From an uncultured Rikenella sp. (GTDB lineage Bacteria > Bacteroidota > Bacteroidia > Bacteroidales > VadinHA17): 64,000 bases of DNA. Shown piece after piece: positions 7,512-48,629 of this stretch. The notes under the pieces were generated by a model. It was not told the origin of the DNA, ran no database searches, and was given only the letters and a program-made list of their open reading frames with translations. The stretch covers positions 26,381 through 90,380 of the forward strand of contig CAZVLJ010000002.1 of NCBI GenBank assembly GCA_964627825.1, given 5' to 3'. How positions within the stretch are numbered: the first letter of the stretch is position 1; every line of letters starts with the position of its first letter. Made by a program: the position numbers and the translations under genes.

Positions 7512-7518
7512 CTCTGAC

Positions 7519-8889
7519 ATGCCAGCGACAAAACTAATTAAAATTCGCATAGCAGTAATGCGGCAAAGTACCAAAATAAGAGGCTTAAAAGATATTCTGG
7601 CAGGTGCCTTCCTGCTGGCAGCAATTTCTGTGCCAGCAGGACTCTTTGCACAACCCTTGCCGGCAGTAGATGAATGGGTTGTGGTTATTGATGCAGGTCA
7701 TGGAGGAAGGGATCCCGGCGCTGTCGGCTCCCGCTCCAGGGAAAAGAATATCAACCTGTCTGTTGCACTTAAGACAGGTAATTATATCAACAAGCATCTG
7801 CAGGATGTCAAGGTTGTATACACCAGGGATGATGATACTTTCATCGGTCTGGCGGAGAGAGCTGAGATAGCCAACAGGCACAAGGCTGACCTCTTCATAT
7901 CTATTCATTCCAATGCAATGACTGACAAGCGTTTTACAGGTGCTGAGACATATGTACTGGGGCAGACCATGGATGAGGCCAACCTGCAGGTGGCTATGAA
8001 GGAAAACTCTGTTATTACTTTTGAAAAGGATTACGAGACTAAATATGAAGGATTTGATCCCAATTCGGTTGAGTCATATATAATCTTCTCATTGATGCAG
8101 AACACCTATCTCAAGCAGAGCACTGAGTTCGCCACCCTGATACAGGACCAGTTCCGTGACAGGGTCGGGAGGAGAGACAGAGGTGTCAGGCAGGCAGGAT
8201 TCCAGGTTCTCTGGAGGACAACCATGCCCTCGGTGCTTGTGGAGCTGGGTTTTGTCACCAATCCAGATGAGGAAAAGTTCCTCTTGTCAGAGCTGGGTCA
8301 GGATTATCTTGCGTCTGCCATCTTCAGGGCTTTCAGGGACTACAAGCAGATCATTGACAACCGTTCAGGGTTGAATAACGGAGGTATCAGGGCTGAGGCA
8401 ACAGACAGGGCTGCTGGTACGGCAGAAAGCTCTGCAGACCAAACCACTGAGGTGGCCACGGGCGGAAGCAACACCACCTCAGTCAATCCCCAACCCGTGA
8501 CAGCATCAGCACCATCCGGCGCAGTAGCTACGGCACCGGCAACGGCGGGGGCAGCCACGTCAGTAAGTGATACCGGTGGCATGCCGGCTTCAACAGGTAC
8601 TGCCAGACCTTCCGGCGAGGATGATGAGATAGTATTCATGGTACAGATAGCAGCTATGCCCAGGGGCAGAACACTGAATCAGAGTCAGTTGAAGGGAGCA
8701 GATCAGATCAGCACCATAGAAGATGGCGAACGTACTAAATATGTGTCCGGAAAATTCGTTGTATATGATGATGCTCTGAAGCACAGGCGAACACTCACGG
8801 GCAGATTTCCCGATGCCTTCGTCATAGCTGTAAGGAATGGAAAGATAATGCCTCTGAGAGAGGCTATTGAAGCAAAGAAAAGAAAATAA
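7519..8889 (+). CDS. N-acetylmuramoyl-L-alanine amidase (Amidase_3) with C-terminal SPOR domain
   Basis: VVIDAGHGGRDPGA, ADLFISIHSNA, GFQVLWRTTMPSVLVELGFVTNPDEE. An Ala/Thr/Ser/Gly-rich linker is followed by a SPOR-like end (IVFMVQIAAM..KYVSGKFVVYDDALKHR). ATG 7558 is an alternative start. Confidence 0.9.
   Translation: MPATKLIKIRIAVMRQSTKIRGLKDILAGAFLLAAISVPAGLFAQPLPAVDEWVVVIDAGHGGRDPGAVGSRSREKNINLSVALKTGNYINKHLQDVKVVYTRDDDTFIGLAERAEIANRHKADLFISIHSNAMTDKRFTGAETYVLGQTMDEANLQVAMKENSVITFEKDYETKYEGFDPNSVESYIIFSLMQNTYLKQSTEFATLIQDQFRDRVGRRDRGVRQAGFQVLWRTTMPSVLVELGFVTNPDEEKFLLSELGQDYLASAIFRAFRDYKQIIDNRSGLNNGGIRAEATDRAAGTAESSADQTTEVATGGSNTTSVNPQPVTASAPSGAVATAPATAGAATSVSDTGGMPASTGTARPSGEDDEIVFMVQIAAMPRGRTLNQSQLKGADQISTIEDGERTKYVSGKFVVYDDALKHRRTLTGRFPDAFVIAVRNGKIMPLREAIEAKKRK
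7529..7536 (-). promoter_or_regulatory. -7 promoter box TAGTTTTG for the LptD-like gene
   Basis: Reverse complement of CAAAACTA; 18 nt upstream of ATG 7511 on the minus strand. Confidence 0.45.
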
Positions 8890-8896
8890 CAGACCT

Positions 8897-9838
8897 ATGA
8901 AGATATCCCATGAGGTAAAGGTCGGAGCCGTTGCACTGATCACCATCATTGCATTTATACTCATGTTTGAGTTTCTCAAGGGCACTGCACTCTTTACCAG
9001 CACTGACACGTATCATATTGTTTATGACAACATTGCCGGGCTGACAGAGTCGAACCCTGTTGAGATCAACGGATACCAGGCAGGCGTTGTCCAGGATGTG
9101 AAGCTGATAAATGACGGCTCAGGACGTATCCTGGTGTCACTGTCAGTTGACAAACATTTCAATATTCCAAAAGACACGAAGGCGGAGATAACAACAGCAA
9201 CCCTGATAGCAGGGATGAAGATCATTCTCCGAATGGGCGGGAGCACTGAGATGTGCCATGACCATGACACCATCTCAGGTTACGTGGCAACCTCTATTCT
9301 TGACAGGTTAAGTTCAACTGTCGCACCGCTTGAGGATAATATTACAAATATAATTCTCAAGCTTGATTCAGTGATTTCGGCACTGAATGATATATTCACT
9401 CCCGGCATGACGGCTGAAATCAGGTCAACCATGGCCAACGTCAACTCTGTCACAGCAAGCCTTAAAGAAGTATCAACCAACAGCAAGGATGAGCTGATTT
9501 CATCCATTGAGGACCTGCAGTCTTTCACTGCCATGCTTTCTGCCAACAGCGAAACGCTTGATTCCACCCTTCAGAACATAAGCAGCATCTCAGATGCAAT
9601 AGCTGCTGCTGACCTGGGAACAACCCTCGGCTCTCTCAGGTCCTCTCTGACCAACCTTGACGATATAGTCAAAGGCATCAGCCAGGGGGAAGGAACGGCC
9701 GGAAAGTTTATCGCCAACGACAGTCTCTACACAAATCTCAGCAATACCCTCTTTAATCTGGACATGTTACTTCGAGACATGAAGGAAAATCCGAAGAAAT
9801 ATGTCCATTTCTCACTTTTCGGCAAAAAGCAGGAATGA
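8897..9838 (+). CDS. MlaD/MCE family protein
   Basis: MKISHEVKVGAVALITIIAFILMF TM anchor, then an MCE domain (YHIVYDNIAGLTESNPVEINGYQAGVVQDV), then a helical C-terminus. Confidence 0.8.
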   Translation: MKISHEVKVGAVALITIIAFILMFEFLKGTALFTSTDTYHIVYDNIAGLTESNPVEINGYQAGVVQDVKLINDGSGRILVSLSVDKHFNIPKDTKAEITTATLIAGMKIILRMGGSTEMCHDHDTISGYVATSILDRLSSTVAPLEDNITNIILKLDSVISALNDIFTPGMTAEIRSTMANVNSVTASLKEVSTNSKDELISSIEDLQSFTAMLSANSETLDSTLQNISSISDAIAAADLGTTLGSLRSSLTNLDDIVKGISQGEGTAGKFIANDSLYTNLSNTLFNLDMLLRDMKENPKKYVHFSLFGKKQE

Positions 9839-10161: not shown

Positions 10162-11592
10162 ATGAACAAGTCACACGATGAGGTTTGGAATAACTGTCTG
10201 GAAATAATTCGTGACATTATTCCTTCGGCCAGCTTTAAAACCTGGTTTGAGCCTATTGTTCCTCTCAGGCTCGACAAGAACATTCTTACAATACAGGTGC
10301 CCAGCCCTTTCTTTTACGAATATCTTGAAGAGCAGTACATAGATATCCTGCGCAAGACGCTGAGGCGGGAGATTGGCAATGATGCCAAGCTTGAGTACAA
10401 CATCATAATGGAGAACTCGGGCTACACCAATGGCAAACCGTATACTGTCCGTTATCCTTCGAGGAACAAGGCTGATCTGCAGAACAAGCCAATGCAGGTT
10501 CCCTTCGAGGTGACTCAGCCGGCCATCAGGAATCCTTTCATTATTCCGGGTATAAAGAAGCTTCATTTTGATCCGAGGCTTAATCCTGATTATTCATTTA
10601 ACAATTTTGTTGAGGGTGAATGCAATCGTCTTGCCCGTTCTGCAGGTATTGCGGTAGGGAGCAATCCTGGCGGCACAGCCTTCAATCCCCTGATGATCTA
10701 TGGTGATTCAGGTCTCGGCAAGACTCATCTGGTTCAGGCCATTGGTATCCTTGTCAAGGAGAAGTTTCCTGACAAGACTGTTCTTTATGTCAATGCCAAC
10801 AAGTTCCAGACACAGTTTGTTGAATCTATCCGCAATAACAACAAGAATGATTTTCTCCATTTTTATCAGATGATTGATGTTCTGATCATTGATGACGTAC
10901 ATGAGTTTGCCGGGAAGGAGAAGACACAGGACACTTTCTTTCACATTTTCAACCATCTCCATCAGTCGGGCAAACAGCTCATCCTGACCTGTGACAAGCC
11001 GCCGGTAGAGTTGCAGGGTATGGAGCAGCGGCTTCTGTCTCGTTTCAAGTGGGGTCTGCTGGCAGACCTTCAGAAGCCCGATTATGAGACCAGGCTTGCC
11101 ATTCTCAGGAAGAAGGCCTACAATGACGGCATTGAGTTGCCCGATGAGATCTTCGAATTTCTTGCAGAGAATATATCCTCGAATATAAGGGAGCTTGAAT
11201 CTGGGCTTATCTCCCTGTATGCCCAGAGCACCCTTAACCGTAAGGAGGTGACCCTTGAGCTGGCACGCCAGATGGTAGACAGGCTGGTGAACACTCAGCG
11301 CAGGGAGATAACTATTGATTATATACAGAAGGTGGTCTGTGAATACTACAAGATCCCCGTGGAGCAGATGCAGGGCAAGACCCGCAAGAGAGAGATAGTT
11401 CAGGCAAGGCAGGTTTCCATGTATTTCTCAAAGAACCTTACAAAGGCATCACTGGCCAGCATCGGATCCATGATCGGGGGCAAGGACCACGCCACCGTGC
11501 TCCATGCCTGCAAGACCGTGAACAACCTCATTGACACTGACAGGCATTTCAGGAGCCAGATACTGGAGATAGAAAAGAAACTCAAGGTATGA
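10162..11592 (+). CDS. dnaA: Chromosomal replication initiator DnaA
   Basis: 476 aa. Walker A GDSGLGKTHL, Walker B VLIIDDVHE, C-terminal DNA-binding domain (REIVQARQVSMYFSKNLT..GGKDHATVLHACKTV). Confidence 0.97.
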   Translation: MNKSHDEVWNNCLEIIRDIIPSASFKTWFEPIVPLRLDKNILTIQVPSPFFYEYLEEQYIDILRKTLRREIGNDAKLEYNIIMENSGYTNGKPYTVRYPSRNKADLQNKPMQVPFEVTQPAIRNPFIIPGIKKLHFDPRLNPDYSFNNFVEGECNRLARSAGIAVGSNPGGTAFNPLMIYGDSGLGKTHLVQAIGILVKEKFPDKTVLYVNANKFQTQFVESIRNNNKNDFLHFYQMIDVLIIDDVHEFAGKEKTQDTFFHIFNHLHQSGKQLILTCDKPPVELQGMEQRLLSRFKWGLLADLQKPDYETRLAILRKKAYNDGIELPDEIFEFLAENISSNIRELESGLISLYAQSTLNRKEVTLELARQMVDRLVNTQRREITIDYIQKVVCEYYKIPVEQMQGKTRKREIVQARQVSMYFSKNLTKASLASIGSMIGGKDHATVLHACKTVNNLIDTDRHFRSQILEIEKKLKV

Positions 11593-23609: not shown

Positions 23610-25358
23610 ATGACTAAAACCTTTTCACCTGACTTTTCGGATAAGAAAACACTCGAAAAGTACTCGTCTGCCTATACCCTCTCCGATATGGAGATCTTTA
23701 TCTTTCCCGACCTTTTTTACCCGCTGGTACTCTCCAACATCATGTCTCCGCTCATCTGGCGTTGGCGTGACGATCCATGGTTCAGGGACATGCAACGAAA
23801 GAACTTCATAAGCAGGGCCAACAGAATCAAACAATACATCATTGACAACTATATCTTCAACCTTGATCTTGAGACGTGGGGATTAACGGAGAAGGAGAAG
23901 GAAACTGCCCGTTTCAGTGACTTCTTTGATACTGAACTGCTGAAACAGTCCAATGCCCTTTTTGGATACGAGGGCGACAGGTATTATTTCAGCATTGATA
24001 TCCGCCGCCATTTCGGGCTTGACAAATATAATTCCTCTGTCATCCCTTACTGGAAGACAGAAACGGTGGAGGCAATGGACGCCTTCAGGCACAGGGAACA
24101 CTACACTACCGGTGCCGGTGAGTGTGTGAGTCTTGCTGCACTCTACGCTGCTGCCATGTTCATAGTGGGTGAGATATCACTTGAAAAGATCTTCATGATG
24201 GCCACTCCTCTCCATTCCCAGAACTACATAGACATGAAAGAGGGGCTTATGACCAACAACCGCAGGATCATGACAAAGAACATGTGGTTCAACGGTACGG
24301 CCCTCTCAGGCAAAGCACGCAGAGCACTTGAGAATGAGAAGGTAACGATTGTTTCACACATCACGGGGCACATACATACTGTGTACGAGGAAGCTACAAT
24401 TGACAGGGATGCCTATATCTCTTTTACTGATAAACTGAGAGGCTTTGTCAGAACACAGCTTTCACCGGTGGTCTTTGTCAACTTCCTGAGGTTTAAACCG
24501 GAATACAAGTGTCTCTTCCAGTACCATCACCTGCGGACCGGATCAAACCATTATATACCGCTTGAGAAGCTCTTTGAATATGAGCACTCATCCAGGGCCA
24601 GCATGAATGAAGAGACGCGAAGCAAGCTGCTTGCCGAGGTTGACCCTGAGGAGTTCCATTGTGAACCCATTCCCGGTAAGATCATACTGAATGATGTGGA
24701 AGAGTTTCTTAAAAACCATCTCAACAGTGACCTGAAGGTAATTGAAGAGACTTTTACCAGGGAATTCCAGACTGAACACACTGATTGTGTGAAGCGGATG
24801 TTCAGTGATATTGGCAGTTTCATTCTAACCGAACCCAGGCTGCCATCCGTGGAAAGAAAGTTCAGGAAGGTAACCCATCCTCAGATCTCCGTTACTGACA
24901 GCCGCAAAGAGATCATCGGTAAGATCACAGATCTCTCCAACGAATCAGAGATGGCGCTGCTGGCGCTGTATGCATTCCGTGATATGGAACGGACTGACTG
25001 GAGACCGTTTATCAAGGCAGCCATTGAAAGGAATCCCGTGAGCCATGATACCCTTGCCGGCAGGAGTGCGGATGAGATATATAATATTATCAATGAGCTG
25101 AAAAACAAATCTATCTATGACTCAGGGCGGATGGCCCAGCCTGATGAGGTATGGAACTTCAGGCGGGGCGACGGGGCCGAAAAGGCTTTTCTCATGGCCA
25201 ATGTGCTGCTCTTCAATGACCCTGCTGCCAGGGTAGAGATATCACTGCATGATGATCATGCTATGCTTGAGTATTCAGGACAGCATTTCAGTTTTGTCAC
25301 AGCCAAGGGTCACAACAAAAAGATACTGATCGGAAAAGGCTCTTTCATCGCAGAGTGA
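23610..25358 (+). CDS. Hypothetical protein (582 aa) with a possible transglutaminase/papain-like Cys-His core
   Basis: Long uninterrupted ORF with no TM or signal. GAGECVSLAALYAAAMF is followed 34 aa later by TPLHSQNYID. No family recognised by eye. Confidence 0.6.
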   Translation: MTKTFSPDFSDKKTLEKYSSAYTLSDMEIFIFPDLFYPLVLSNIMSPLIWRWRDDPWFRDMQRKNFISRANRIKQYIIDNYIFNLDLETWGLTEKEKETARFSDFFDTELLKQSNALFGYEGDRYYFSIDIRRHFGLDKYNSSVIPYWKTETVEAMDAFRHREHYTTGAGECVSLAALYAAAMFIVGEISLEKIFMMATPLHSQNYIDMKEGLMTNNRRIMTKNMWFNGTALSGKARRALENEKVTIVSHITGHIHTVYEEATIDRDAYISFTDKLRGFVRTQLSPVVFVNFLRFKPEYKCLFQYHHLRTGSNHYIPLEKLFEYEHSSRASMNEETRSKLLAEVDPEEFHCEPIPGKIILNDVEEFLKNHLNSDLKVIEETFTREFQTEHTDCVKRMFSDIGSFILTEPRLPSVERKFRKVTHPQISVTDSRKEIIGKITDLSNESEMALLALYAFRDMERTDWRPFIKAAIERNPVSHDTLAGRSADEIYNIINELKNKSIYDSGRMAQPDEVWNFRRGDGAEKAFLMANVLLFNDPAARVEISLHDDHAMLEYSGQHFSFVTAKGHNKKILIGKGSFIAE

Positions 25359-37300: not shown

Positions 37301-38437
37301 CTATGAGAGTCTGTTGCGATAATCAGTGTACCCGAACTCCCTGACCAGCCTGAATTTCTGATCAGCAGTCCAGATGCCGATATGAGGATGGGGCACACCG
37401 TTGAAGGTGGTGGTCTTGACCATTGTATAATGTATCATGTCCCAGAAGATAATCCTGTCACCGGGATTCAGTTCACGATGGAACGACCAGTCTCCCATGA
37501 AGTCACCTGAGAGGCATGAGTTCCCTCCCATGCGGTAGGTGGGTTTTCCCGGTACCGGGTCAAAGGCTCCCATGATTACAGGTTTGTATGGCATCTCGAG
37601 GCAGTCAGGCATGTGTGCTGTGAATGAAACATCAAGCATGGCGGTCTGTATTCCATCACGTACAATTATATCCTCCACAGTAGCCACCAGTTCACCTGTT
37701 TCCCATGCAAAGGCGCTTCCCGGTTCAAGGATGATATGGATGTCATACTTCTCCCTGAATGTTTTCAGCAGGCCTATGAGATGGTCAGTGTCATAATCTT
37801 TCCGTGTCATCAGATGACCACCACCCATATTGAGCCATTTCAGTTTCGGCAGGAGGTGCCCGAATCTCTTCTCAACCACCTGCAGTACCTTTTCAAGTGT
37901 ATAGGAATCAGACTCGAACAATACATGGAAGTGCAATCCTTCAACTCCTTCCGGCAGTCCGTCAGACAGTTCGTCTGCGGTAACCCCGAGCCGTGACCCG
38001 GGAGAGCACGGGTTATAGATACCTTGGGCAATCTCAGAATACTCAGGATTGATCCGCAGGCCGGGTGAGATATGTTTTCCTTCGCGCTGCAGTACCGGTG
38101 CATATTTCCTGTATTGCGCCAGGGAGTTAAAGGTGATATGCGAGCTGTAGCGAAGAATGGTTCCGAACTCTTCACGGCGGAAGGCGGGGGCATAGGTATG
38201 TGCCGGCACGCCCATCTCCTCATAGCAGAGCCTGGCTTCATGGATGGAGCTGGCTGCCGCGCCGGAGACAAATTCGCGCACTACCGGAAAGACTGACCAC
38301 ATGGCGAAGCCTTTGAATGCCAGTATGATCTCCGTGTCTGAGGTCTGTGCCACATTTTTAATGAGGAGGAGATTCCGCCTCAGCCTCTCCTCGTCAATGA
38401 CATAGCACGGAGAGGGAACCTTGGTGTAGTCAATCAT
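37301..38437 (-). CDS. nspC: Carboxynorspermidine decarboxylase
   Basis: 378 aa, PLP fold-III decarboxylase-like (PCYVIDEERLRRNL.., ILAFKGF, LNMGGG). Immediately downstream of the carboxynorspermidine dehydrogenase gene. Confidence 0.9.
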   Translation of the reverse strand: MIDYTKVPSPCYVIDEERLRRNLLLIKNVAQTSDTEIILAFKGFAMWSVFPVVREFVSGAAASSIHEARLCYEEMGVPAHTYAPAFRREEFGTILRYSSHITFNSLAQYRKYAPVLQREGKHISPGLRINPEYSEIAQGIYNPCSPGSRLGVTADELSDGLPEGVEGLHFHVLFESDSYTLEKVLQVVEKRFGHLLPKLKWLNMGGGHLMTRKDYDTDHLIGLLKTFREKYDIHIILEPGSAFAWETGELVATVEDIIVRDGIQTAMLDVSFTAHMPDCLEMPYKPVIMGAFDPVPGKPTYRMGGNSCLSGDFMGDWSFHRELNPGDRIIFWDMIHYTMVKTTTFNGVPHPHIGIWTADQKFRLVREFGYTDYRNRLS

Positions 38438-38438
38438 A

Positions 38439-39635
38439 TCAGAGTTCGAGGTCTATATCAAACTTTTCATGCCATGGCAGGCCTAGGAAGGCCAGTTTTT
38501 CAAGGAAGGGATCAGGGTTAAACTGTTCAACATTCCATACACCGGGTTTCTTCCAGAGTTCTTTCATATACATCATGGCTCCCGTCGCAGCCGGAACGCC
38601 TGTTGTATAGCTCACGGCCTGTGTTCCTGTCGCACGGTAAGCCTCCTCATGGCTGCAGTTGTTCCATATATAGTAAGTCTTCTCCTTCCCCTGTTTGTCG
38701 AGGCCCCTGATGCGGCATCCGATTGATGTCCATCCCTTGTAGTTCTCACCAAGGTCACCCGGGTTGGGAAGAACGGCTTTCAGAAACTGAATGGGAACTA
38801 TCTCCATGCCATTATAGATAACCGGGTCAATACGTGCCATGCCAATGTTCTGAATTACGCGAAGGTGTGTCAGGTATTCCTGCCCGAATGTCATCCAGAA
38901 GCGGGCACGGCGTATGGTGGGAAAGTTTTTTACAAGTGACTCCAGCTCTTCATGGTAGATAAGATATGACTCCCTGGGTCCTATTCCAGGGTAAGTCAGA
39001 GGCTTGTGAATCTCATGAGGCTCTGTATGGACCCACTGACCATTCTCCCAGTATTTACCCTTCTGGGTCACCTCACGTATATTTATCTCGGGATTGAAGT
39101 TTGTTGCAAAGGGTTTGCCATGGTCGCCTGCGTTGCAGTCAACTATATCAAGATAGTGTATTTCACTGAAATGGTGTTTTGCGGCATGGGCGGTGAAGAC
39201 ACCTGTGACCCCGGGGTCAAATCCGCAGCCAAGTATTGCTGTCAGTCCTGCTTCACGGAAGCGTTCATGATAGGCCCACTGCCATGAATACTCATACCTG
39301 GCTTCTTCCGGCGGTTCATAGTTGGCTGTGTCAAGGTAAGCCACGCCGGTCTTGAGGCAGGCTTCCATAATATGCAGATCCTGGTAAGGAAGGGCAAGAT
39401 TGACAACAAGGTCAGGTTTGAAGGCGCTGATGAGCGATATCGTCTCATTGACATTATCTGCATCAACCTGTGCGGTCTTTATGCGGTTTCCTCCTATGCG
39501 TTCAGCAATGGCATCACATTTTGATTTAGTGCGGCTGGCAACCATTATCTCAGTGAAGATCTCCGGCATGGCCGCCATTTTGACCACCGCCACCGTAGCG
39601 ACACCACCGGCGCCAATAACTAACACTTTTCCCAT
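38439..39635 (-). CDS. Carboxynorspermidine synthase/dehydrogenase (saccharopine dehydrogenase family)
   Basis: Rossmann motif VLVIGAGGVATV, 398 aa, paired with nspC across a 1-nt gap. Confidence 0.9.
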   Translation of the reverse strand: MGKVLVIGAGGVATVAVVKMAAMPEIFTEIMVASRTKSKCDAIAERIGGNRIKTAQVDADNVNETISLISAFKPDLVVNLALPYQDLHIMEACLKTGVAYLDTANYEPPEEARYEYSWQWAYHERFREAGLTAILGCGFDPGVTGVFTAHAAKHHFSEIHYLDIVDCNAGDHGKPFATNFNPEINIREVTQKGKYWENGQWVHTEPHEIHKPLTYPGIGPRESYLIYHEELESLVKNFPTIRRARFWMTFGQEYLTHLRVIQNIGMARIDPVIYNGMEIVPIQFLKAVLPNPGDLGENYKGWTSIGCRIRGLDKQGKEKTYYIWNNCSHEEAYRATGTQAVSYTTGVPAATGAMMYMKELWKKPGVWNVEQFNPDPFLEKLAFLGLPWHEKFDIDLEL

Positions 39636-42289: not shown

Positions 42290-43027
42290 TCAATCTGCTG
42301 AGCCACGGTCAGCGCCGGCCAGGTGGATCCTGATCTTTTCAAGATTCCGGGGAGTGCCGCAATCAAACCAGTAACCATAGTCATGCAGGAAGGTCATTAT
42401 CAGGTTCTCCTTTGCCAGCATGAGATAAAGCGAGGTCAATGAATAGATGCCCTCCTGCATGAGTTTGAAGATTGAGGGCGAGAGTACCTGGATGCCTGAG
42501 AAACCAACCTCTTCGAGCTTCCTGCTGTTCTCAACGGTGATTATCTCCTCTCTGGTGGCATTGTTACGCCATCCGCGCAGTCGGCCTGAGGGATCAGCCA
42601 GGAGCATCCTGTTCCCGGGTCTGTGCCTGACGGCCAGTGTGGCCAGTGCTCCCGTTTCAAGATGCTGGCGGTACAAACCTTCAAGATCAAGATCGGTAAA
42701 TTCATCCACGTTATGTGCAAGGAAAGGCCTGTCATCAAAGAAGTCACGGGCTTTATAGAGTCCGCCTGCCGTGTCAAGCAGTTCATCGCGTTCATCCGAA
42801 ACAGTGATCCGATATCCTCCGGCTCGCAGTCTTTCTGTCTCACCAAGCATCTGGTCAGGGTGGTGATGGATATTGACCAGCAGGTCGTCAAAGCCTGCCC
42901 TGACAAGCTTTTCTGCTGTCAGTTCAAGCATGGTCCTGCCGTTGATGTCAGCAAGCGCCTTGGGAATTGTCTGTGTAAGCTCGCCCAGCCTTGTACCCAG
43001 GCCGGCAGCAAAGATTATGGCTTTCAT
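42290..43027 (-). CDS. Sugar-1-phosphate nucleotidyltransferase, MurU-like (MurNAc-1-P uridylyltransferase candidate)
   Basis: MKAIIFAAGLGTRLGELTQTIPKAL NTP-transferase motif; 245 aa. Directly downstream of the AmgK-like kinase, as in the amgK-murU pair. Confidence 0.75.
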   Translation of the reverse strand: MKAIIFAAGLGTRLGELTQTIPKALADINGRTMLELTAEKLVRAGFDDLLVNIHHHPDQMLGETERLRAGGYRITVSDERDELLDTAGGLYKARDFFDDRPFLAHNVDEFTDLDLEGLYRQHLETGALATLAVRHRPGNRMLLADPSGRLRGWRNNATREEIITVENSRKLEEVGFSGIQVLSPSIFKLMQEGIYSLTSLYLMLAKENLIMTFLHDYGYWFDCGTPRNLEKIRIHLAGADRGSAD

Positions 43028-43029
43028 TG

Positions 43030-44442
43030 TCAGAATGCAGAGTGTTTAACGGTCACCTGAACACCCGGCATGGAGCAGAGCATTGATGCCACCCTTTCTG
43101 CACACCATACCGAGCGGTGCTGACCACCCACGCAACCAAAGGCAGCATGAATGTCGAGTATTCCTTTTCTTCTCATCATAGGAAGAGAATTCCTTATGAT
43201 ATTGGTACAATCGCCTGCAAATGCTACTGCTTCATCATCATTATTAAAGAACTCTATCACTTCAGGATCAAGCCCTGTCAGCTCACTCAGTTCAGCTACC
43301 GTAACAGGATTTCTCAGTCCGCGACAGTCGAAGACAAATCCACTGCCACTGTCATAGCTCACTGATTTTCCCTTGACATATGAGAAGCTTTCAAGGTTTA
43401 TTCTTACCAGGTCCTGGTAGTGTTCCAGAATACGATACTTGCGCTGCAGCGGCACAGCCAGGGAGGCTTTCCTGAGTTCAGGCAGGTCAGTCTGCACTGC
43501 ACCGCTCTCCAGCAGTTCGTTCATCAGTTCCACCGCCGGCACGATGCTCTCATTGAAGGTGGGTTTGTTTTCATGCAATCCCCTGAAGCCGAACGCTCCC
43601 AGAGCCTGCATCAGCCTGATTAGTGTGAAGGCACCCTGGTACATCTCAATTGACTCCCTGGGCTTGCCTGTTGCAGTCGCAAAGAGATCAAGATGGCGGT
43701 CAATTGTAATCTTCCTGATCTTTTCAGGTATAAAGGCCTTGGCGTCATAGACAAGGGAGGCAATATCATACTGCGGTGCTCCCAGCCTGCCTCCCTGGTA
43801 ATCAATATACCACGGCTTCCCGTTGTGGAGCATTATGTTGGCCGTCTGGAAGTCGCGGAAGAGAAAGTACTCCTGGCCCGCATCCAGAAGAAAGCGGGTG
43901 AGTATCTCAAAATCACGCTCCAGCCTCGTCTCATTGAATGGCGCACCTATTAGTTTGAGGAACATGTACTTATAATAGTTCATATCCCACACTATGCTCT
44001 GTCGGTCAAAGCTCCGGTGAGGATAGCATAGCGAGAGATCCAATCCTTTTATACCCTCGGTCTGTATCCTGACAAGGTCAGCAGCAATGGTCAGGAAGAG
44101 ATTTTCCGTCTCCTCATTGAACCGTTCCTCATCAGAGCGACGCGCGAGCCAGGTAAAGAGGTTCGTATCGCCAAGATCCTCAATAAAATATATCTTTTCT
44201 TCCGGATAATAGACATACACCTCAGGTACCGGCAGGCCCTTTGACCTGAAGTGGTTGGAAAATCCCACGAAGGCTTCATTCTCCTCCCTGCTGGGATTCC
44301 ACGCGCCAATGACCTGGTCCTCACGGCAGATAAGCCTGAAATATATCCTGTCAGAACCTGACTGGGGCAGGCGTGTAATAATCTCGGGAGGTGAGCCCTT
44401 CCAGTGCCCGAACGCCTTTTCTATCTGTGTTCGTATATCCAT
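43030..44442 (-). CDS. Fusion protein: APH/choline-kinase-fold amino-sugar kinase (AmgK-like) + RapZ C-terminal domain
   Basis: N-terminal about 335 aa carries a phosphotransferase fold (FRDFQTANIML, WYIDYQGG, QYDIASLVYD). The C-terminal about 127 aa matches RapZ-C block by block (LESFSYVKG, FVFDCRGLRNP, LTGLD..V..F, FGCVGGQHRSVWCAERVA). Confidence 0.75.
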   Translation of the reverse strand: MDIRTQIEKAFGHWKGSPPEIITRLPQSGSDRIYFRLICREDQVIGAWNPSREENEAFVGFSNHFRSKGLPVPEVYVYYPEEKIYFIEDLGDTNLFTWLARRSDEERFNEETENLFLTIAADLVRIQTEGIKGLDLSLCYPHRSFDRQSIVWDMNYYKYMFLKLIGAPFNETRLERDFEILTRFLLDAGQEYFLFRDFQTANIMLHNGKPWYIDYQGGRLGAPQYDIASLVYDAKAFIPEKIRKITIDRHLDLFATATGKPRESIEMYQGAFTLIRLMQALGAFGFRGLHENKPTFNESIVPAVELMNELLESGAVQTDLPELRKASLAVPLQRKYRILEHYQDLVRINLESFSYVKGKSVSYDSGSGFVFDCRGLRNPVTVAELSELTGLDPEVIEFFNNDDEAVAFAGDCTNIIRNSLPMMRRKGILDIHAAFGCVGGQHRSVWCAERVASMLCSMPGVQVTVKHSAF

Positions 44443-44443
44443 T

Positions 44444-45571
44444 TCAGAATTTGATGATTATCTTTTTCCTGTAGAGAATGTAGCCGAATGCCCATACAAT
44501 TAAAACCTGGATTATTGCAAAAAGAAGGCTGGCCAGCTTCTGCTCCTCAAACAGCGGGCTGCATATGTTGTTGAAGATCCATTTATACAGTGACGAATCG
44601 CCAATCTTGATATTCAGCATAGTCTTAGTCCATATTCCTGCAAGTAGATAGGTAAAGAGGGCATTGGTTCCGAATGTATTGAAGAAACCTGTCCATCCTT
44701 TCAGGTTCCACATATCAATGATAATGAACAGGAGCGCCAGGATAACCATCCCGATACCACCTGCATAAAGCACGTATGAGCTGGTCCACAGCGGCTTGTT
44801 GATGGGGAAGTATTGTCCCCAAAGGAGTCCCGCCCCTATCAGCAGGATCCCGGTAAAGGTGAGCCAGCCCGGGGTCTTCCATGACTTGCCGCTGCTGCCT
44901 ATGAGCCCTCCGGCCATAAACCCAAGAAGCACCGTGGCAGTGGCAGGCAGTGTGCTGAGCAGTCCTTCCGGGTCAAATGGCATGCCGAAGCCTTTATAAA
45001 GATGCTTTTCTCCAAGGAGGGCGATGTCTACCGAGCGTGCGTAGTTACCCTCGAGTGAGTAGGGATCCGCTCCTCCCATGAAGTACATCAATGCCCAGTA
45101 CCCGAACAGGATGACTGATGCAGCTATCCAGATATAGTTTCGCCTTACAAGCAAAACTATCACTGCGCCCAGTCCCCATGCCAGGGCAATCCGTTGCAGA
45201 ACGCCCATAATCCTCAGGGTGCTGTAATCACGGGCAAAGAGGGGAAAAATGTTCAGGAACAGTCCTGCCGCAAAGATGAGCAGTACCCTTCTTATAATCC
45301 TTACGAACGAAGGGCCTGAGAAGGCGAAGTTATATTTGCGAAGCGAATAGAACATCGCAACCCCTGAGATGAACAGGAATGAGGGGAAGACGAGGTCGGT
45401 GGGCGTACATCCATGCCACGAGGCATGCCTCAGGGGAGCGTAGACATGACTCCATGTGCCGGGAGTGTTTACTATTATCATGAATGCCACCGTCATACCC
45501 CTGAATACGTCGAGAGACATCAGACGTGCCGACTTGCCGGCACTCTTTCCGGAACTCTTTGATGTTGCCAT
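44444..45571 (-). CDS. HGSNAT/DUF5009-like polytopic membrane acyltransferase
   Basis: RLMSLDVFRGMTVAFMIIVN N-terminal motif and about 10 TM helices. Start set at ATG 45571; the longest ORF uses TTG 45616. Confidence 0.75.
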   Translation of the reverse strand: MATSKSSGKSAGKSARLMSLDVFRGMTVAFMIIVNTPGTWSHVYAPLRHASWHGCTPTDLVFPSFLFISGVAMFYSLRKYNFAFSGPSFVRIIRRVLLIFAAGLFLNIFPLFARDYSTLRIMGVLQRIALAWGLGAVIVLLVRRNYIWIAASVILFGYWALMYFMGGADPYSLEGNYARSVDIALLGEKHLYKGFGMPFDPEGLLSTLPATATVLLGFMAGGLIGSSGKSWKTPGWLTFTGILLIGAGLLWGQYFPINKPLWTSSYVLYAGGIGMVILALLFIIIDMWNLKGWTGFFNTFGTNALFTYLLAGIWTKTMLNIKIGDSSLYKWIFNNICSPLFEEQKLASLLFAIIQVLIVWAFGYILYRKKIIIKF

Positions 45572-45677
45572 TTTTGTGTATTGATCCGGTAAAAATAACA
45601 AATTGAAGCCAATCAACCGGGAAAAGAATCACAAAGAAAATTGCTATTTTTGATTCCGTTTCAAATCATTCCATCCA

Positions 45678-48629
45678 ATGAAAAACTCACTTCTGATCTC
45701 ATTTGCCGCTGTTGTGCTCTTATTGCTGACTGTATCCGGATCACGACCTGCCGAAAACAATGTCCCATGGAAGAAATATGCCGGTGACAGTAGAGTTGAC
45801 AGTATCCTTAACACGATGACAGTCAGAGAGATGATTGCACAGCTGATCTGGGTGCCGGCATGGGCTGACGAGCGGGGAGGGAACTACAGGCAGGTTGAAG
45901 AGCTTGTCACCAGGTACGGGGTGGGCGGAGTGATTTTCTTTGAAGGCTCGCGTGACTTGCAGGTTGATTACACGAGGCGCATCAGCGAGGTATCCGTGCT
46001 TCCGCTTATCATTGCCCAGGATGCCGAATGGGGCACAGGGATGAGACTGAGGGAGGTTGAAGACTTCCCATACCAGATAACACTAGGAGCAGTGCAGGAT
46101 GACTCACTCATATACAAAATGGGAGCCGCTGTTGCGTGGCAATGCCGTGATATAGGCGTCAACCTTAACCTTGCACCTGTGGCCGATGTGAACAACAATC
46201 CGCTCAACCCGGTCATCAACCACCGTTCATTCGGAGAGGATCCCGGAAGGGTGGCAGAAAAAGCCGTTATGTACATGAAGGGCATGCAGGATAACGGCAT
46301 TCTTGCCTGTGCGAAACATTTCCCGGGCCATGGCGACACCAACGTTGATTCGCACACAGGGATACCTGTTATCAGGGGTGACCGTACCCGCTTTGACAGG
46401 GTGGAGTTTGTACCATTCAGGAGGCTGGTGGATGAGGGTATCGGTGCAGTTATGACAGCTCATATCAGCGTGCCGGACCTTGATGAATCAGGTCTGCCTG
46501 CCACCTTCTCACGAAAGATTGTTACAGGCTTCCTCAGGGAGGAATCGCGCTTCAGAGGACTGATCCTCACCGATGCAATGAATATGGCCGGAGCCACAAT
46601 GACCTATCCCTCGGGGATAGCTGATGCTGAGGCGTTCAGGGCAGGCAATGACATCATTGAGTATTCAACTGACCCTGTTCGTGCCATTGATGAGATTGCC
46701 ACCAGGGTTGAGAAGGGTGAGATAGCCGTCAGCGAGGTCACTGACAGATGCAGGCGATTGCTGGAAGCGAAGCTGTGGCTTGAGAGCCTGAAAAAAAGTA
46801 AATGTGACGCGGACAGATCCGGCACGGGTATCCCTGCAGAGGAACACCCGGCGCTGAAACATGATCTCTATGCCGGCGCCATGACCCTGATAGAGAACAA
46901 TGACAACCTGGTGCCGCTGGGAAGGCTTGACCGGATGAGGATAGCCACAGTAGCTGTCAACAGGCTGGCAATGACTGAATTCCAGGGGATGACAGAGAGA
47001 TATACCAATGCTGACCACTATTATATTGATCCCTCCAATGAGCAGGGAGCCCGATATATCCTCTCCAAGCTGAAAGGTTACGACCTGGTGATTGCCGGTT
47101 TCTGCAATATGGATCAGAGGCCTACAGGGCAGTATGGTGTCACTCCGGAGCTGAACAACATCTTCAGTCAGATTGCCGCCCTTGACAGATCAGCCGTTAT
47201 ATGGTTCGGCAACCCTTATGGTATAGACAGGCTGGATATTACAAGTAAACCAACGGCCATGCTGGTGGCCTATCAGGACAACAGTTACACGCAGCAGGTG
47301 GCTGTACAGGTTCTCTTCGGTGCAATACCCGCCTCCGGGAAGCTTCCTGTCACAATCAATGAGACCTACCCGGCAGGTACAGGCATAAAGACCGCCGGAA
47401 ATCTAAGGCTGCAGTTCGGCTATCCTGAGAACGCGGGGCTCTCATCAGTAAGACTCATCAGTAAGGTAGACTCCATAGTTAACGAAGGGCTTGACACCCT
47501 CGCCTACCCCGGATGCCATGTGCTTATAGCCCGCAGGGGAGTGGTGGTACTGAACAAGTGTTACGGTTTTCATCTCTATGACAGTACCGAAGCTGTCAGT
47601 GAGCATGATCTGTGGGATCTTGCATCGGTGACAAAGGTATCTGCTGCCACGCCCTCACTGATGTTGCTGAATGACCGGGGAATCTTTGATCCGGACAGGA
47701 CACTGGGTTATTACCTGCCATGGTACCGTCTCTCGGACAAGGGCAACATGCTGCTCAGGGAGATGCTTGCCCACCAGGCCGGACTGCGGTCATGGATCCC
47801 CTTCTGGAGAAACACCCTGGAGAATGACTCCACCTTCAGGAAAGGCATCTTCAGTGACTATACCAACAAGAAGTTTGCTCTCGCGGTAACCGATTCAATG
47901 TACATGAGCAGGCGTCATCTCAAGGAGATGTTCAGGGAAATACGTGACAGTCCCACCGGGGAGAAGAAATATGTATACTCAGATCTCACCTTCATCCTTG
48001 CCGCAGAGATAATTGAGACTCTGACGGACAGTACCATTGACAAATTTGCCCCGGCAAACATCTACCGACCCATCGGGGCATTCAACATAACCTACAATCC
48101 ACTCGGGAAATATCCGCGTGATCGAATAGTGCCCACTGAATTTGACTCCCTGTTCAGGCATCAGCTTCTGCGGGGCACTGTGCACGATGAAGGGACGGCC
48201 ATGCTGGGGGGAGTCTCCGGTCATGCCGGTCTCTTTTCCACTGGCATTGATCTGCTCAAGCTGGTTGAGATGTACCGCAGGGGTGGTGAATACGGTGGAG
48301 TGCGGGTACTGAGCAGTGATGTCCTTAAGGAATATACGCGGGTACAGTATCCTGAAAATGACAACCGCAGGGCGATGGGGTTTGACAAGCCCCTGCTGGG
48401 AAATGATACAATACCGCCGGAAGAGGCTTATCCGTGTCCGTCAGCATCTCCGTCAAGCTTCGGGCATTCAGGGTTCACAGGCACTTTCATCTGGGTTGAC
48501 CCCGATGAGGAGATATCATATGTGTTCCTGAGCAACAGGGTCTACCCTACTCGGAACAACAGCAGGCTGTCAGACCTCTCCATCAGGGGCAGGATACTGC
48601 AGGCGGTGTATGATTCCAGGATTGATTGA
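45678..48629 (+). CDS. Fusion protein: GH3 beta-N-acetylhexosaminidase (NagZ-like) + class-C-type serine hydrolase (beta-lactamase family)
   Basis: GH3 part: KHFPGHGDTNVDSH and GLILTDAMNM. C-terminal half: SxxK (ASVTK), YSD, HSGFTG. Signal peptide at the N-terminus. Confidence 0.85.
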   Translation: MKNSLLISFAAVVLLLLTVSGSRPAENNVPWKKYAGDSRVDSILNTMTVREMIAQLIWVPAWADERGGNYRQVEELVTRYGVGGVIFFEGSRDLQVDYTRRISEVSVLPLIIAQDAEWGTGMRLREVEDFPYQITLGAVQDDSLIYKMGAAVAWQCRDIGVNLNLAPVADVNNNPLNPVINHRSFGEDPGRVAEKAVMYMKGMQDNGILACAKHFPGHGDTNVDSHTGIPVIRGDRTRFDRVEFVPFRRLVDEGIGAVMTAHISVPDLDESGLPATFSRKIVTGFLREESRFRGLILTDAMNMAGATMTYPSGIADAEAFRAGNDIIEYSTDPVRAIDEIATRVEKGEIAVSEVTDRCRRLLEAKLWLESLKKSKCDADRSGTGIPAEEHPALKHDLYAGAMTLIENNDNLVPLGRLDRMRIATVAVNRLAMTEFQGMTERYTNADHYYIDPSNEQGARYILSKLKGYDLVIAGFCNMDQRPTGQYGVTPELNNIFSQIAALDRSAVIWFGNPYGIDRLDITSKPTAMLVAYQDNSYTQQVAVQVLFGAIPASGKLPVTINETYPAGTGIKTAGNLRLQFGYPENAGLSSVRLISKVDSIVNEGLDTLAYPGCHVLIARRGVVVLNKCYGFHLYDSTEAVSEHDLWDLASVTKVSAATPSLMLLNDRGIFDPDRTLGYYLPWYRLSDKGNMLLREMLAHQAGLRSWIPFWRNTLENDSTFRKGIFSDYTNKKFALAVTDSMYMSRRHLKEMFREIRDSPTGEKKYVYSDLTFILAAEIIETLTDSTIDKFAPANIYRPIGAFNITYNPLGKYPRDRIVPTEFDSLFRHQLLRGTVHDEGTAMLGGVSGHAGLFSTGIDLLKLVEMYRRGGEYGGVRVLSSDVLKEYTRVQYPENDNRRAMGFDKPLLGNDTIPPEEAYPCPSASPSSFGHSGFTGTFIWVDPDEEISYVFLSNRVYPTRNNSRLSDLSIRGRILQAVYDSRID

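Follow-up and report, generated by a model that had tools for sequence, protein, structure and literature searches.

The open reading frame at positions 43030..44442 (reverse strand) of the 64-kb window, meaning the whole stretch of DNA analyzed, encodes an intact protein of 470 aa with an ATG start and no frameshift, a length (470-473 aa) common to about 65 homologues. Residues 1-335 (43438..44442, reverse strand) form a kinase of the APH/choline-kinase fold, as identified by Pfam APH, NCBIfam AmgK models and Foldseek. Residues 336-470 (43033..43437, reverse strand) comprise a linker and a RapZ C-terminal domain (RapZ-C), recognized by Pfam, an AlphaFold model and structure and profile matches; unfused kinase orthologues stop at the equivalent of residue ~335, where the kinase part ends. 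We refer to the kinase as K, to RapZ-C as R and to the neighboring nucleotidyltransferase as U, with a slash for a gene boundary. U, a MurU-like sugar-1-phosphate nucleotidyltransferase (42290..43027, reverse strand) assigned by NCBIfam MurU, Pfam NTP_transferase and an N-terminal GxGxRL motif, begins 2 nt past the K-R stop, and this adjacency is kept at all loci compared. On the other side, the gene for a NagX-like polytopic membrane protein (44444..45616, reverse strand) stops 1 nt before the K-R start. This protein matches NCBIfam NagX_SO_3504 with an E-value of 6e-49 (167 bits, under the cutoff of 480), returned no match in a Pfam search, and is syntenic across the Bacteroidales loci. Divergent from K-R lies a 983-aa protein (45678..48629, forward strand) that joins a GH3 (NagZ-like) N-domain to a beta-lactamase/PBP4B-like domain (Pfam GH3, E 4e-74; Pfam Beta-lactamase, E 2.5e-38; NCBIfam beta-N-acetylhexosaminidase and PBP4B). 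Its N-terminus is hydrophobic and, judged by eye, signal-peptide-like, and the gene is syntenic in both fused and unfused relatives. The NagZ-like/PBP-like and NagX-like neighbors provide supporting context for a salvage function of the locus. No canonical rapZ was found within the 64-kb window.

The K-R fusion recurs across about 70 protein clusters (46-91% identity) and 55 species-level genomes, in which the gene order GH3-bla / nagX-like - K-R - U is preserved. Because it recurs so widely, the fusion is attributable neither to chance nor to assembly, and the caveat of the preliminary description, that it might be an artefact not seen in related genomes, no longer applies. Both halves are under purifying selection: at unsaturated dS, the dN/dS ratios span 0.02-0.08 in K and 0.04-0.12 in R. 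We also considered that assembly, a frameshift or gene calling might have created the fusion, and the reading frame is indeed broken in a few long-read MAG loci (L045, L049, L052-L054), but the frame is intact in the window, independent projects have yielded the same protein of 470-473 aa in about 65 clusters and 55 genomes, and the C-domain has a dN/dS of about 0.05. Refuted by recurrence, synteny and selection, an artefact has a practically negligible probability.

The Pfam APH profile (PF01636) matches residues 31-233 of K-R at 36 bits against a cutoff of 23, and the best NCBIfam kinase matches of K are two AmgK models, NF045759 and NF045698 (E 1e-12 and 2e-9), as expected from the initial assignment of the first ~335 residues to an AmgK-like kinase. 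The best Foldseek match is 3csv (E 4e-12); LicA is also among the structural matches. The catalytic loop R196-D-F-Q-T-A-N202 (43837..43857, reverse strand) is of the Brenner type, xDxxxxN, and R196, D197, F198, Q199, A201 and N202 are invariant in an alignment of 62 homologues. The same alignment defines a metal-binding motif, I213-D-Y-Q-G-G-R219 (43786..43806, reverse strand), in which I213, D214, Q216, G217, G218 and R219 are invariant and which aligns with IDFQDA of 3csv. K has the APH/choline-kinase fold of AmgK-type enzymes, an intact Asp/Asn catalytic loop and the metal-binding Asp. The gene directly downstream had likewise been described as MurU-like, and the NCBIfam MurU model NF045761 is the best match of U, with 110 bits (under the cutoff of 250), a score twice that of the best family other than the two MurU models. 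K, too, scores far under its equivalog cutoffs (47.9 bits versus 550 and 37.3 versus 500). Since both scores are far under these cutoffs (48 versus 550; 110 versus 250), the names AmgK and MurU are family-level assignments drawn from context and do not imply orthology.

For the same reason, another sugar is possible as the substrate. K and U might not be MurNAc enzymes at all, and might activate a different hexosamine or sugar, or a choline-type alcohol in the manner of LicA/LicC, in which case the peptidoglycan context would be coincidental. Pairs of an APH kinase and an NTP_transferase serve several substrates, the LicA match is compatible with such a role, and in other lineages the module adjoins DUF554 or housekeeping genes, not peptidoglycan genes. 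However, no named families score higher against K and U than AmgK and MurU, and NagZ-like/PBP-like and NagX-like genes flank the module in the window and in all Bacteroidales relatives. JGI annotates one fused fragment as N-acetylmuramate 1-kinase, and reports place the AmgK-MurU route in Bacteroides and show it to work in Tannerella. We consider a different substrate improbable.

Pfam PF22740 (RapZ C-terminal domain) matches residues 347-468 (nt 43039..43404) over profile positions 2-118 of 121, at 91.2 bits against a cutoff of 27 (E 7e-26). The AlphaFold model of R alone has a pLDDT of 87 and superposes on E. coli RapZ with a TM-score of 0.84 and an rmsd of 2.2-2.7 A over ~130 columns (5o5o/8b0i), and with TM-scores of 0.76/0.83 on 5o5s. 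All 17 significant PDB structure matches of the model are RapZ, and a PDB profile search with R returned RapZ only (E 2.6e-22). A complete RapZ-C had been proposed from four short block alignments, each of which is reproduced on E. coli RapZ (ESFGFKHG, FDVRFLPNP, MTGLD and IGCTGGKHRSV); profile and structure searches alike place the C-terminal domain within the RapZ family. Pfam and Foldseek identify an APH fold at the N-terminus of K-R and no P-loop RapZ N-domain, which bears out the proposal that a different kinase fold has taken its place.

R has a nearly invariant putative phosphate pocket. Its loop, G436-C-V-G-G-Q-H-R-S444 (43111..43137, reverse strand), has the pattern C-x5-R-S and corresponds to G246-S254 of E. 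coli RapZ. Among 148 diverse representatives, the G, H, R and S are present in all and the C in 147. DSSP assignments on the model predict a strand at 430-437 and a helix at 443-456, with C437 at the strand end and R443 at the helix start. The motif D372-C373-R374 (43321..43329, reverse strand; E. coli D182-V183-R184) is conserved in 147, 146 and 148 of the 148 representatives, respectively, and C373 is a second near-invariant Cys of the R subfamily; the single canonical RapZ in the comparison has V here. His467 (43042..43044, reverse strand; E. coli H276), three residues before the end of K-R, is H in 147/148. Overall, D-C-R, N-P, G-x-D, G-C-T-G-G-x-H-R-S and the terminal H are each kept in at least 141/148. 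In E. coli, the pocket of the RapZ C-terminal domain (RapZ-CTD) binds sulfate or malonate, held in the loop via backbone amides and Arg, and is the proposed GlcN6P site; the isolated RapZ-CTD binds GlcN6P with a KD of 10 nM. The anion pocket of E. coli RapZ is lined by H190, T248, G249, H252 and R253, with C247 close by. Of the corresponding residues K-R retains C437, G439, H442 and R443, while T248, a backbone contact to the pocket anion, is replaced by V. The H190 position is also V in K-R and G in most of the R subfamily. Pocket-lining positions that are kept elsewhere in at least 114/148 representatives have changed in the clade of K-R (G to V380, R to T381, T to V438, K to V356), and because of these replacements the ligand of this clade may differ or bind more weakly.

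R of the K-R-U module is separate from canonical RapZ. Against the canonical RapZ/YvcJ family NF003828, K-R scores 94 bits, under the cutoff of 244, and matches profile positions 109-275 only. The K270 position is V in K-R, V/I/A in 68/68 close relatives and basic in 0/148 representatives, and the basic tail K281-R282-K283 is missing from K-R and its R subfamily. R184 alone is kept of 11 tabulated basic residues of E. coli RapZ, the other 10 being replaced, and the 190-197 loop that reads the RNA groove in E. coli is not conserved. The pI of the R domain is 6.5 versus 9.6-9.9 for canonical RapZ. R has lost the basic tail and most of the residues that contact RNA. These losses bear on the enterobacterial role, in which a kinase-tethered R would bind a regulatory RNA and pass it to a ribonuclease. 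The GlmZ-binding pocket residues R184, C247, G249 and R253 are conserved in R, but the quadruple determinant K270, K281, R282 and K283 is wholly missing, V/A/G replaces the H190 that E. coli RapZ requires, the groove-reading loop has diverged and the domain is near-neutral to acidic. The RNA-binding tail is likewise not conserved in Gram-positive YvcJ homologues. The GlmY/GlmZ-RNase E circuit of enterobacteria is not expected in Bacteroidota. An RNA-adaptor role is very improbable, and the database names given to R, “RNase adapter RapZ” or “RNase adaptor protein for sRNA GlmZ degradation”, are mislabels.

The K-R gene is one spelling of a conserved three-component module, K-R-U, and not a one-off domain swap. 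The module occurs in Bacteroidota and some other labelled lineages, and the order K-R-U is constant across four layouts: three overlapping genes, K-R/U (the arrangement in the window), K/R-U (as at L058) and a single K-R-U protein (as in the solitary gene at L059). Free-standing R genes of 138-140 aa overlap K upstream and U downstream, and one locus (L056) has the layout K/R. Among the 150 nearest 50%-identity representatives, 91 have a kinase-sized N-terminus followed by R, 6 are K-R-U and 3 are R-U; a P-loop RapZ N-domain or Walker A N-terminus was found in 0/150. In rare cases HEAT or ankyrin repeats carry R, which is also found apart from both K and U as a free-standing gene beside a type I restriction gene. 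R is optional as well, for a Bacteroidales clade of identical synteny has K and U and no R at that locus. The preliminary description had suggested that RapZ-C is a portable sugar-phosphate-binding or regulatory module in peptidoglycan recycling. Portability is strongly supported by the distribution of R as a free-standing gene, on K, on U, in the triple fusion and on HEAT/ankyrin repeats; the proposed function is a possible one. Our literature search found no paper describing the K-R-U architecture, though it is visible in databases, and the searchable AmgK-MurU literature makes no mention of a third component.

The invariable position of R between K and U, and its fusion to one or the other, might be expected of a purely structural dimerization or docking domain that joins the two enzymes, for example to channel MurNAc-1-P, with no ligand sensing. 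E. coli RapZ-CTD dimerizes on its own, D182A abolishes this self-interaction, and the equivalent D372 is present in 147/148 representatives. Docking nevertheless leaves the invariant pocket residues C437, H442, R443, S444, N378 and P379 unaccounted for, and does not fit the R domains without K or U. We assign such a role little probability. Since R sits between a kinase and the next pathway enzyme in many related bacteria, its constant place points to a metabolic rather than an RNA-related job.

We tentatively propose, as a reading that comes close to an even chance, that K-R supplies parts one and two of a three-part module for amino-sugar salvage in the cytoplasm. K would act as an anomeric sugar kinase of the AmgK type and U as a MurU-type sugar-1-phosphate uridylyltransferase, together turning recycled MurNAc, and possibly GlcNAc, into a UDP-sugar. 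R, a small domain, would be no RNA adaptor, and may instead use the Cys-x5-Arg-Ser loop of its phosphate pocket to bind a phosphorylated amino-sugar metabolite. As a sensor or regulatory subunit it could couple this metabolite signal to the kinase/uridylyltransferase pair and so fit salvage flux to the cellular amino-sugar-phosphate pool. R seems to be accessory to the two enzymes, which favors regulation: characterized AmgKs from Legionella and P. aeruginosa are 38-39 kDa, too small to hold R, and the Bacteroidales clade noted above has K and U without it. Sensing or regulation is the likeliest role of R, with catalysis of a Cys-phosphatase-like kind as a serious rival.

Under this rival, which we rate as rather unlikely, R would use its C-x5-R-S loop for Cys-dependent phosphate transfer or phosphate hydrolysis on an amino-sugar phosphate, and K-R-U would represent three fused pathway enzymes. 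R might dephosphorylate MurNAc-6-phosphate, as MupP does in Pseudomonas, and supply free MurNAc to K; alternatively, it might be a hydrolase that clears wrong sugar-1-phosphates or pyrophosphate. The placement of the C-x5-R-(S/T) spacing on a strand-loop-helix agrees with such chemistry, as do the presence of C437, H442, R443 and S444 in 147-148/148 representatives alongside the second invariant Cys (C373), D372, D392 and H467, the anion binding of the E. coli loop, and the affinity of RapZ-CTD for a 6-phospho amino sugar. In some loci, R also has a gene of its own, translationally coupled and placed between those for two enzymes. Against the regulatory reading, two Cys, two His, two Asp and two Arg are conserved almost without exception, a pattern seen more typically in catalytic sites than in allosteric pockets, and a unit found free-standing or on either neighbor is unusual for an intramolecular allosteric domain. 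Literature hints of RapZ-C chemistry detract from this reading further: E. coli RapZ C247S is inactive, GlcN6P seems “chemically transformed” in RapZ-CTD crystals, and phosphatase activity is reported for the homologues YvcJ and HpaP. A broader and slightly less probable proposal is that RapZ-C is at root an enzyme of Cys-x5-Arg phosphate transfer on amino-sugar phosphates and that, within K-R-U, it would provide the missing third step of anabolic recycling of cell-wall sugars in Bacteroidota and related lineages, such as MurNAc-6P dephosphorylation in the manner of MupP, with GlcN6P sensing and RNA-backbone binding by enterobacterial RapZ as later re-uses of the catalytic pocket. This would account for the essential C247 and for the transformed GlcN6P.

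These findings bear on the biochemical role of the RapZ C-terminal pocket, on its invariant and essential Cys, on the fate of GlcN6P and on the function of RapZ homologues outside enterobacteria. In K-R-U, RapZ-C comes stripped of RNA-binding features and is linked, through four gene layouts, to a pair of enzymes from one defined pathway, which makes its role amenable to study on a purified enzyme of two or three domains with known candidate ligands. The AmgK-MurU shortcut, which underlies fosfomycin tolerance, Tannerella MurNAc auxotrophy and NAM-probe labelling, has an unrecognized third component, R, in many members of the Bacteroidota and in some further labelled lineages.

Several known systems share elements with the module. 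Cys-phosphatases (PTP, LMW-PTP/ArsC) and PTS EIIB have a C-x5-R-(S/T) motif on a strand-loop-helix, with the anion cradled by backbone amides and Arg, and C437-VGGQH-R443-S444 of R conforms to this pattern. The extra conserved Cys of R recalls ArsC or redox-regulated PTPs. Structure and PDB profile searches detected no fold or sequence homology of R to PTP, LMW-PTP or rhodanese; the resemblance is a local motif only, and any catalysis is putative. The fructose-6-phosphate-binding subdomain of 6-phosphofructokinase also counts among the closest known systems. In Pseudomonas, the third known enzyme of anabolic recycling is MupP, a MurNAc-6P phosphatase of the HAD family; by analogy R could take this role, although the MupP fold is unrelated to that of R. 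YvcJ of B. subtilis and HpaP of Xanthomonas resemble R in having RapZ-C without the enterobacterial RNA-binding tail and are tied to UDP-GlcNAc and cell-envelope metabolism, but they keep the P-loop NTPase N-domain and are paired with GlmR/YvcK rather than with a sugar kinase and a uridylyltransferase. The CTD of E. coli RapZ (YhbJ; 5O5S, 5O5O, 8B0I) shares with R the Pfam domain, the fold, 31% identity, the pocket loop G-C-x-G-G-x-H-R-S and D182, R184, N188, P189, G200 and D202. It differs in that RapZ has its P-loop N-domain where K-R has a kinase, in that K270, R268, R266, R223, K251, R196 and H190 are all replaced in K-R, which also lacks the basic tail, and in that V183 is an invariant Cys in the R subfamily. 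Its partners are GlmY/GlmZ, RNase E and QseE/F, whereas those of R are a sugar kinase and a uridylyltransferase. The AmgK-MurU systems of Pseudomonas putida, Legionella and Tannerella forsythia likewise place an APH-fold anomeric kinase directly before an NTP_transferase-family uridylyltransferase in a peptidoglycan-recycling context; K and U score far under the corresponding equivalog cutoffs, and whereas characterized AmgKs have no extra domain, here RapZ-C stands between the kinase and the uridylyltransferase.

The open reading frame encoding the kinase–RapZ-C protein (43030..44442, minus strand) is intact and spans 470 codons from an ATG start. Residues 31-233 belong to the APH phosphotransferase family (36 bits against a Pfam cutoff of 23) and residues 347-468 to the RapZ C-terminal domain (PF22740; profile positions 2-118 of 121, 91 bits against a cutoff of 27, E 7e-26). 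Two AmgK models are the top kinase-type NCBIfam matches for the kinase, hereafter K (E 1e-12 and 2e-9), and the C-terminus, hereafter R, aligns to positions 109-275 of the RapZ model; the protein scores far under the equivalog cutoffs of all three models. Among PDB sequences, the kinase half matches the APH-fold protein 3csv (E 7e-12) and the C-terminal half E. coli RapZ (E 2e-11). The full-length AlphaFold model is confident (pLDDT 89.5, pTM 0.73), with APH-fold small-molecule kinases as its PDB matches. When residues 336-470 are modeled on their own (pLDDT 87, pTM 0.82), the result agrees with E. coli RapZ at a TM of 0.84 and 2.2-2.7 Å, and all 17 structure matches at E<1e-3 are RapZ entries. 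The catalytic loop (R196-D-F-Q-x-A-N202) and metal-binding motif (I213-D-x-Q-G-G-R219) of K are invariant in 62 aligned homologues. The preliminary description had proposed a fusion of an AmgK-like kinase to a complete RapZ C-terminal domain; the four alignment blocks it quoted are reproduced in an alignment to E. coli RapZ, both domains exceed their Pfam cutoffs and the C-domain model has the RapZ fold, so the fusion is confirmed at the levels of sequence, profile and fold.

Both Pfam domains are present in approximately 65 protein clusters of 470-473 aa, with 46-91% identity. With one genome scanned per species, the fusion was found at 55 loci, nearly all in MAGs of uncultured Bacteroidales (Rikenellaceae or Rikenella by label in some cases), the nearest being 96% identical; two copies of ~40% identity come from one Roseivirgaceae MAG and one unclassified Bacteroidota MAG. 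All Bacteroidales loci of sufficient length share one gene order, in which a GH3–beta-lactamase gene is followed by nagX-like, kinase–RapZ-C and murU-like genes. In comparisons with unsaturated synonymous sites, dN/dS is 0.02-0.08 in the kinase part and 0.04-0.12 in the RapZ-C part, and each is therefore under purifying selection. With recurrence in related genomes, conserved synteny and selection on both parts, an artefactual origin of the fusion is effectively excluded. At five loci from long-read MAG assemblies (L045, L049, L052, L053 and L054; ~8001-9413) the gene and its neighbors align only piecewise, with 1-3 extra bases in match length; these broken frames look like indel sequencing errors, not pseudogenes.

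The MurU-like nucleotidyltransferase gene (U; 42290..43027, minus strand) lies directly downstream of the fusion, as first described, starting 2 nt past its stop. A NagX-like polytopic membrane protein is encoded upstream (44444..45616, minus strand), with 1 nt between its stop and the fusion start. Divergent from these three genes is a 983-aa fusion of a GH3 NagZ-like domain to a beta-lactamase/PBP4B-like domain (45678..48629, plus strand), whose hydrophobic N-terminus resembles a signal peptide as judged by eye; a 985-aa version occupies the syntenic position in relatives with and without the fusion (L064-L066). A few kbp away are nspC, encoding carboxynorspermidine decarboxylase, and a carboxynorspermidine synthase-like gene (37301..39635, minus strand), the former above its equivalog cutoff and the latter at 390 bits, under a cutoff of 800. 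These norspermidine genes retain synteny with the module in all Bacteroidales relatives, fused or unfused. The rest of the window is ordinary chromosome, probably near the replication origin, since dnaA (10162..11592, plus strand) and dnaX (1279..3012, minus strand) are present; no sharp turn in cumulative GC skew was found in a 2-kb profile of the window. Its other genes include an AmiA-like amidase, galK, recF, addAB-like genes, mnmA, corA, trkH, lysC, lysA, thrS and lepB, together with two large ORFs without NCBIfam matches at the thresholds used, one of 941 aa (4749..7574, minus strand) and one of 582 aa (23610..25358, plus strand) that also lacks a Pfam match. No other RapZ-like sequence, either P-loop N-domain or second C-domain, occurs elsewhere in the 64 kb.

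A search of 1.84 billion representative proteins with the C-domain only returned 2464 matches at E≤1e-3 and 442 at E≤1e-10. The best 150 of the 2464, in clusters at 50% identity, comprise 91 in which a kinase-sized N-terminal region precedes RapZ-C, six triple fusions of APH, RapZ-C and NTP_transferase (712-816 aa), three RapZ-C–NTP_transferase proteins (about 381-387 aa) and a remainder of short proteins, fragments and rare combinations, for example with HEAT or ankyrin repeats; none of the 150 carries the canonical RapZ Walker-A N-domain. A profile of diverse C-domains matched at least 7958 proteins at E≤1e-10 among 8000 candidates scored. The best of these are free-standing proteins of ~138 aa from MAGs labelled Bacteroidales, Marinilabiliales, Bacteroidota and, once, Thiohalospira; partial kinase–RapZ-C fragments among the matches carry the labels Muribaculaceae and Marinimicrobia. 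The ~138-aa genes are flanked directly by an upstream APH kinase gene (345-364 aa) and a downstream NTP_transferase gene (240-266 aa), and stop and start codons overlap at both joins. K and R are separate adjacent genes at locus L056, one RapZ-C–NTP_transferase gene (P0187) has a separate APH kinase gene 4 nt upstream, and one triple fusion (P0152) is a solitary gene amid housekeeping genes. A single order, K then R then U, is spelled in four ways: three separate genes, K-R with separate U (this window), separate K with R-U, and K-R-U. These four layouts provide "Rosetta-stone" fusion evidence that R works with both enzymes, and the suggestion that RapZ-C is a portable module is borne out by its occurrence free-standing, on the kinase, on the nucleotidyltransferase and in the triple fusion. 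Where K, R and U form a three-gene operon, in Marinilabiliales-like genomes and others from Bacteroidota, a DUF554 membrane protein rather than a NagX-like one is encoded directly upstream (L067 2292-2969, L069 2239-2916, L070 2207-2995); this DUF554 protein may be a transporter for the module's substrate.

RapZ-C was also observed outside the module. Free-standing 133-aa proteins of a distinct type (P0128/P0294; L061 4193-4594, L062 4581-4982, L063 4215-4616, L057 1727-2128) retain FDCR and GCTGGQHRS, with NPYWDE as in canonical RapZ. Their genes come directly after a type I restriction HsdR gene, with DUF1653 and small unknown genes downstream, or follow a RhuM-like gene; no kinase or nucleotidyltransferase is a neighbor, which places RapZ-C in a setting unrelated to the module as well. 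Rare architectures join it to HEAT repeats (P0150, 570 aa) or ankyrin repeats (P0178, 285 aa), and truncated or chimeric gene calling may account for a GH92 fragment with RapZ-C from the representative search (P0149, 293 aa).

R is not always retained. Unfused close orthologues of ~345 aa, with 55-60% identity in the kinase, share the synteny of the fused loci, and their K-to-U gap of only 125-269 nt holds no RapZ-C remnant. In a neighbour-joining tree of kinase domains, indicative only as it has no support values, they form a single clade nested within fused and triple-fused lineages, for which the simplest reading would be an ancestral fusion from which R was lost once. Several residues in or near the pocket differ between the query clade and the consensus of the module's RapZ-C subfamily: the clade has V380 in place of G, T381 in place of R/K, V438 in place of T and V356 in place of K, at positions conserved in at least 114 of 148 diverse subfamily representatives, and S360, S362, S367, M423, K426 and I428 are further departures; altered or pocket-loop sites lie at 43306..43311 and 43111..43137. 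In two neighboring lineages the core motif is damaged, by C to S in P0072 (GSAIGQHRS) and by H to I in P0070 (GCSTGTIRS). These changes may indicate weakening constraint on R in the part of the Bacteroidales tree where it was lost outright.

The pocket of E. coli RapZ (H190, T248, G249, H252 and R253, with C247 beside) binds sulfate or malonate, contacts RNA backbone phosphates in the cryo-EM complex and has been proposed as the site for GlcN6P, which the isolated CTD binds with a KD of 10 nM. The 148 representatives keep R374 (E. coli R184), P379, G436, G440, H442, R443 and S444 without exception, and D372 (D182), C437 (C247) and H467 (H276) in 147, C373 (V183), N378 and G439 in 146, G390 in 145 and D392 in 141. 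H190, essential in E. coli, is replaced by G in most of the subfamily and by V in the query. The K270 position is V, I or A in 68 of 68 close relatives and basic in none of the 148, the K281-R282-K283 tail is missing, and in the query only R184 is retained among 11 tabulated basic RNA-contact or proposed RNA-binding residues. The query C-domain has a pI of 6.5 and net charge of -1, against 9.6-9.9 and +6 to +8 for the E. coli CTD; according to the literature, Gram-positive YvcJ homologues likewise lack the RNA-binding tail. R therefore retains a phosphate-binding core with no credible RNA-binding surface, and a role as RNA adaptor is effectively excluded.

The best reading of K and U is that they carry out the AmgK and MurU steps in anabolic amino-sugar recycling. 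AmgK and MurU are their top-scoring named families, NagZ-like, PBP-like and NagX-like genes are neighbors, and one kinase–RapZ-C fragment is named N-acetylmuramate 1-kinase by JGI; the AmgK-MurU route is reported in Bacteroides and functional in Tannerella. Since equivalog thresholds are not reached, we infer these roles from homology and context; that the enzymes act on another substrate, a question separate from the role of R, seems improbable. K would convert MurNAc, and possibly GlcNAc, to the alpha-1-phosphate, and U would convert MurNAc-alpha-1-P to UDP-MurNAc. R quite likely has a small-molecule, phosphate-pocket function coupled to both. We tentatively prefer a sensor or regulatory subunit, because the sole biochemically characterized relative senses an amino-sugar phosphate through RapZ-C and because R is dispensable for the core pathway. 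Such a sensor would respond to GlcN6P, MurNAc-6P or the UDP-sugar pool, gating salvage that circumvents GlmS and MurA/B. A catalytic R, the main rival, is less probable. The C437-x5-R443-S444 loop is spaced like the C-x5-R-(S/T) phosphate loop known from Cys-phosphatases, with Cys ending a beta-strand and Arg opening the next helix (DSSP on models), and two Cys, two His, two Asp and two Arg are unusually strictly conserved for mere binding. C247S inactivates RapZ, for which a "specialised catalytic function" was proposed (Islam et al.), and phosphatase activity is reported for YvcJ and HpaP; however, Foldseek and profile searches revealed no kinship to any phosphatase fold. A candidate reaction would be the conversion of MurNAc-6P to MurNAc, which MupP performs in the Pseudomonas pathway. 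A solely structural role in docking or dimerization, recalling dimerization of the E. coli CTD through D182, is unlikely, as it leaves the invariant pocket unexplained.

The fused architecture is visible in databases with precomputed Pfam domains, where members go by "RapZ C-terminal domain-containing protein", "RNase adapter RapZ" or "phosphotransferase" at NCBI and by "RNase adaptor protein for sRNA GlmZ degradation" at JGI. Membership of the canonical RapZ/YvcJ family was rejected, with the P-loop domain and RNA determinants missing and the score under cutoff. The protein belongs to the RapZ-C domain family on the strength of its profile match, fold and core motif, and it would work like AmgK, its place in the AmgK equivalog being putative. 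The characterized Legionella and P. aeruginosa AmgK enzymes, at 38-39 kDa, leave no room for R. No paper mentioning both AmgK and RapZ was found in the searchable literature, and the recycling literature examined describes no component beyond MupP, AmgK and MurU; R is therefore rated an unrecognized third component. The known recycling pathway thereby gains a widely conserved partner, and the known RapZ-C domain appears in a new, non-RNA setting.
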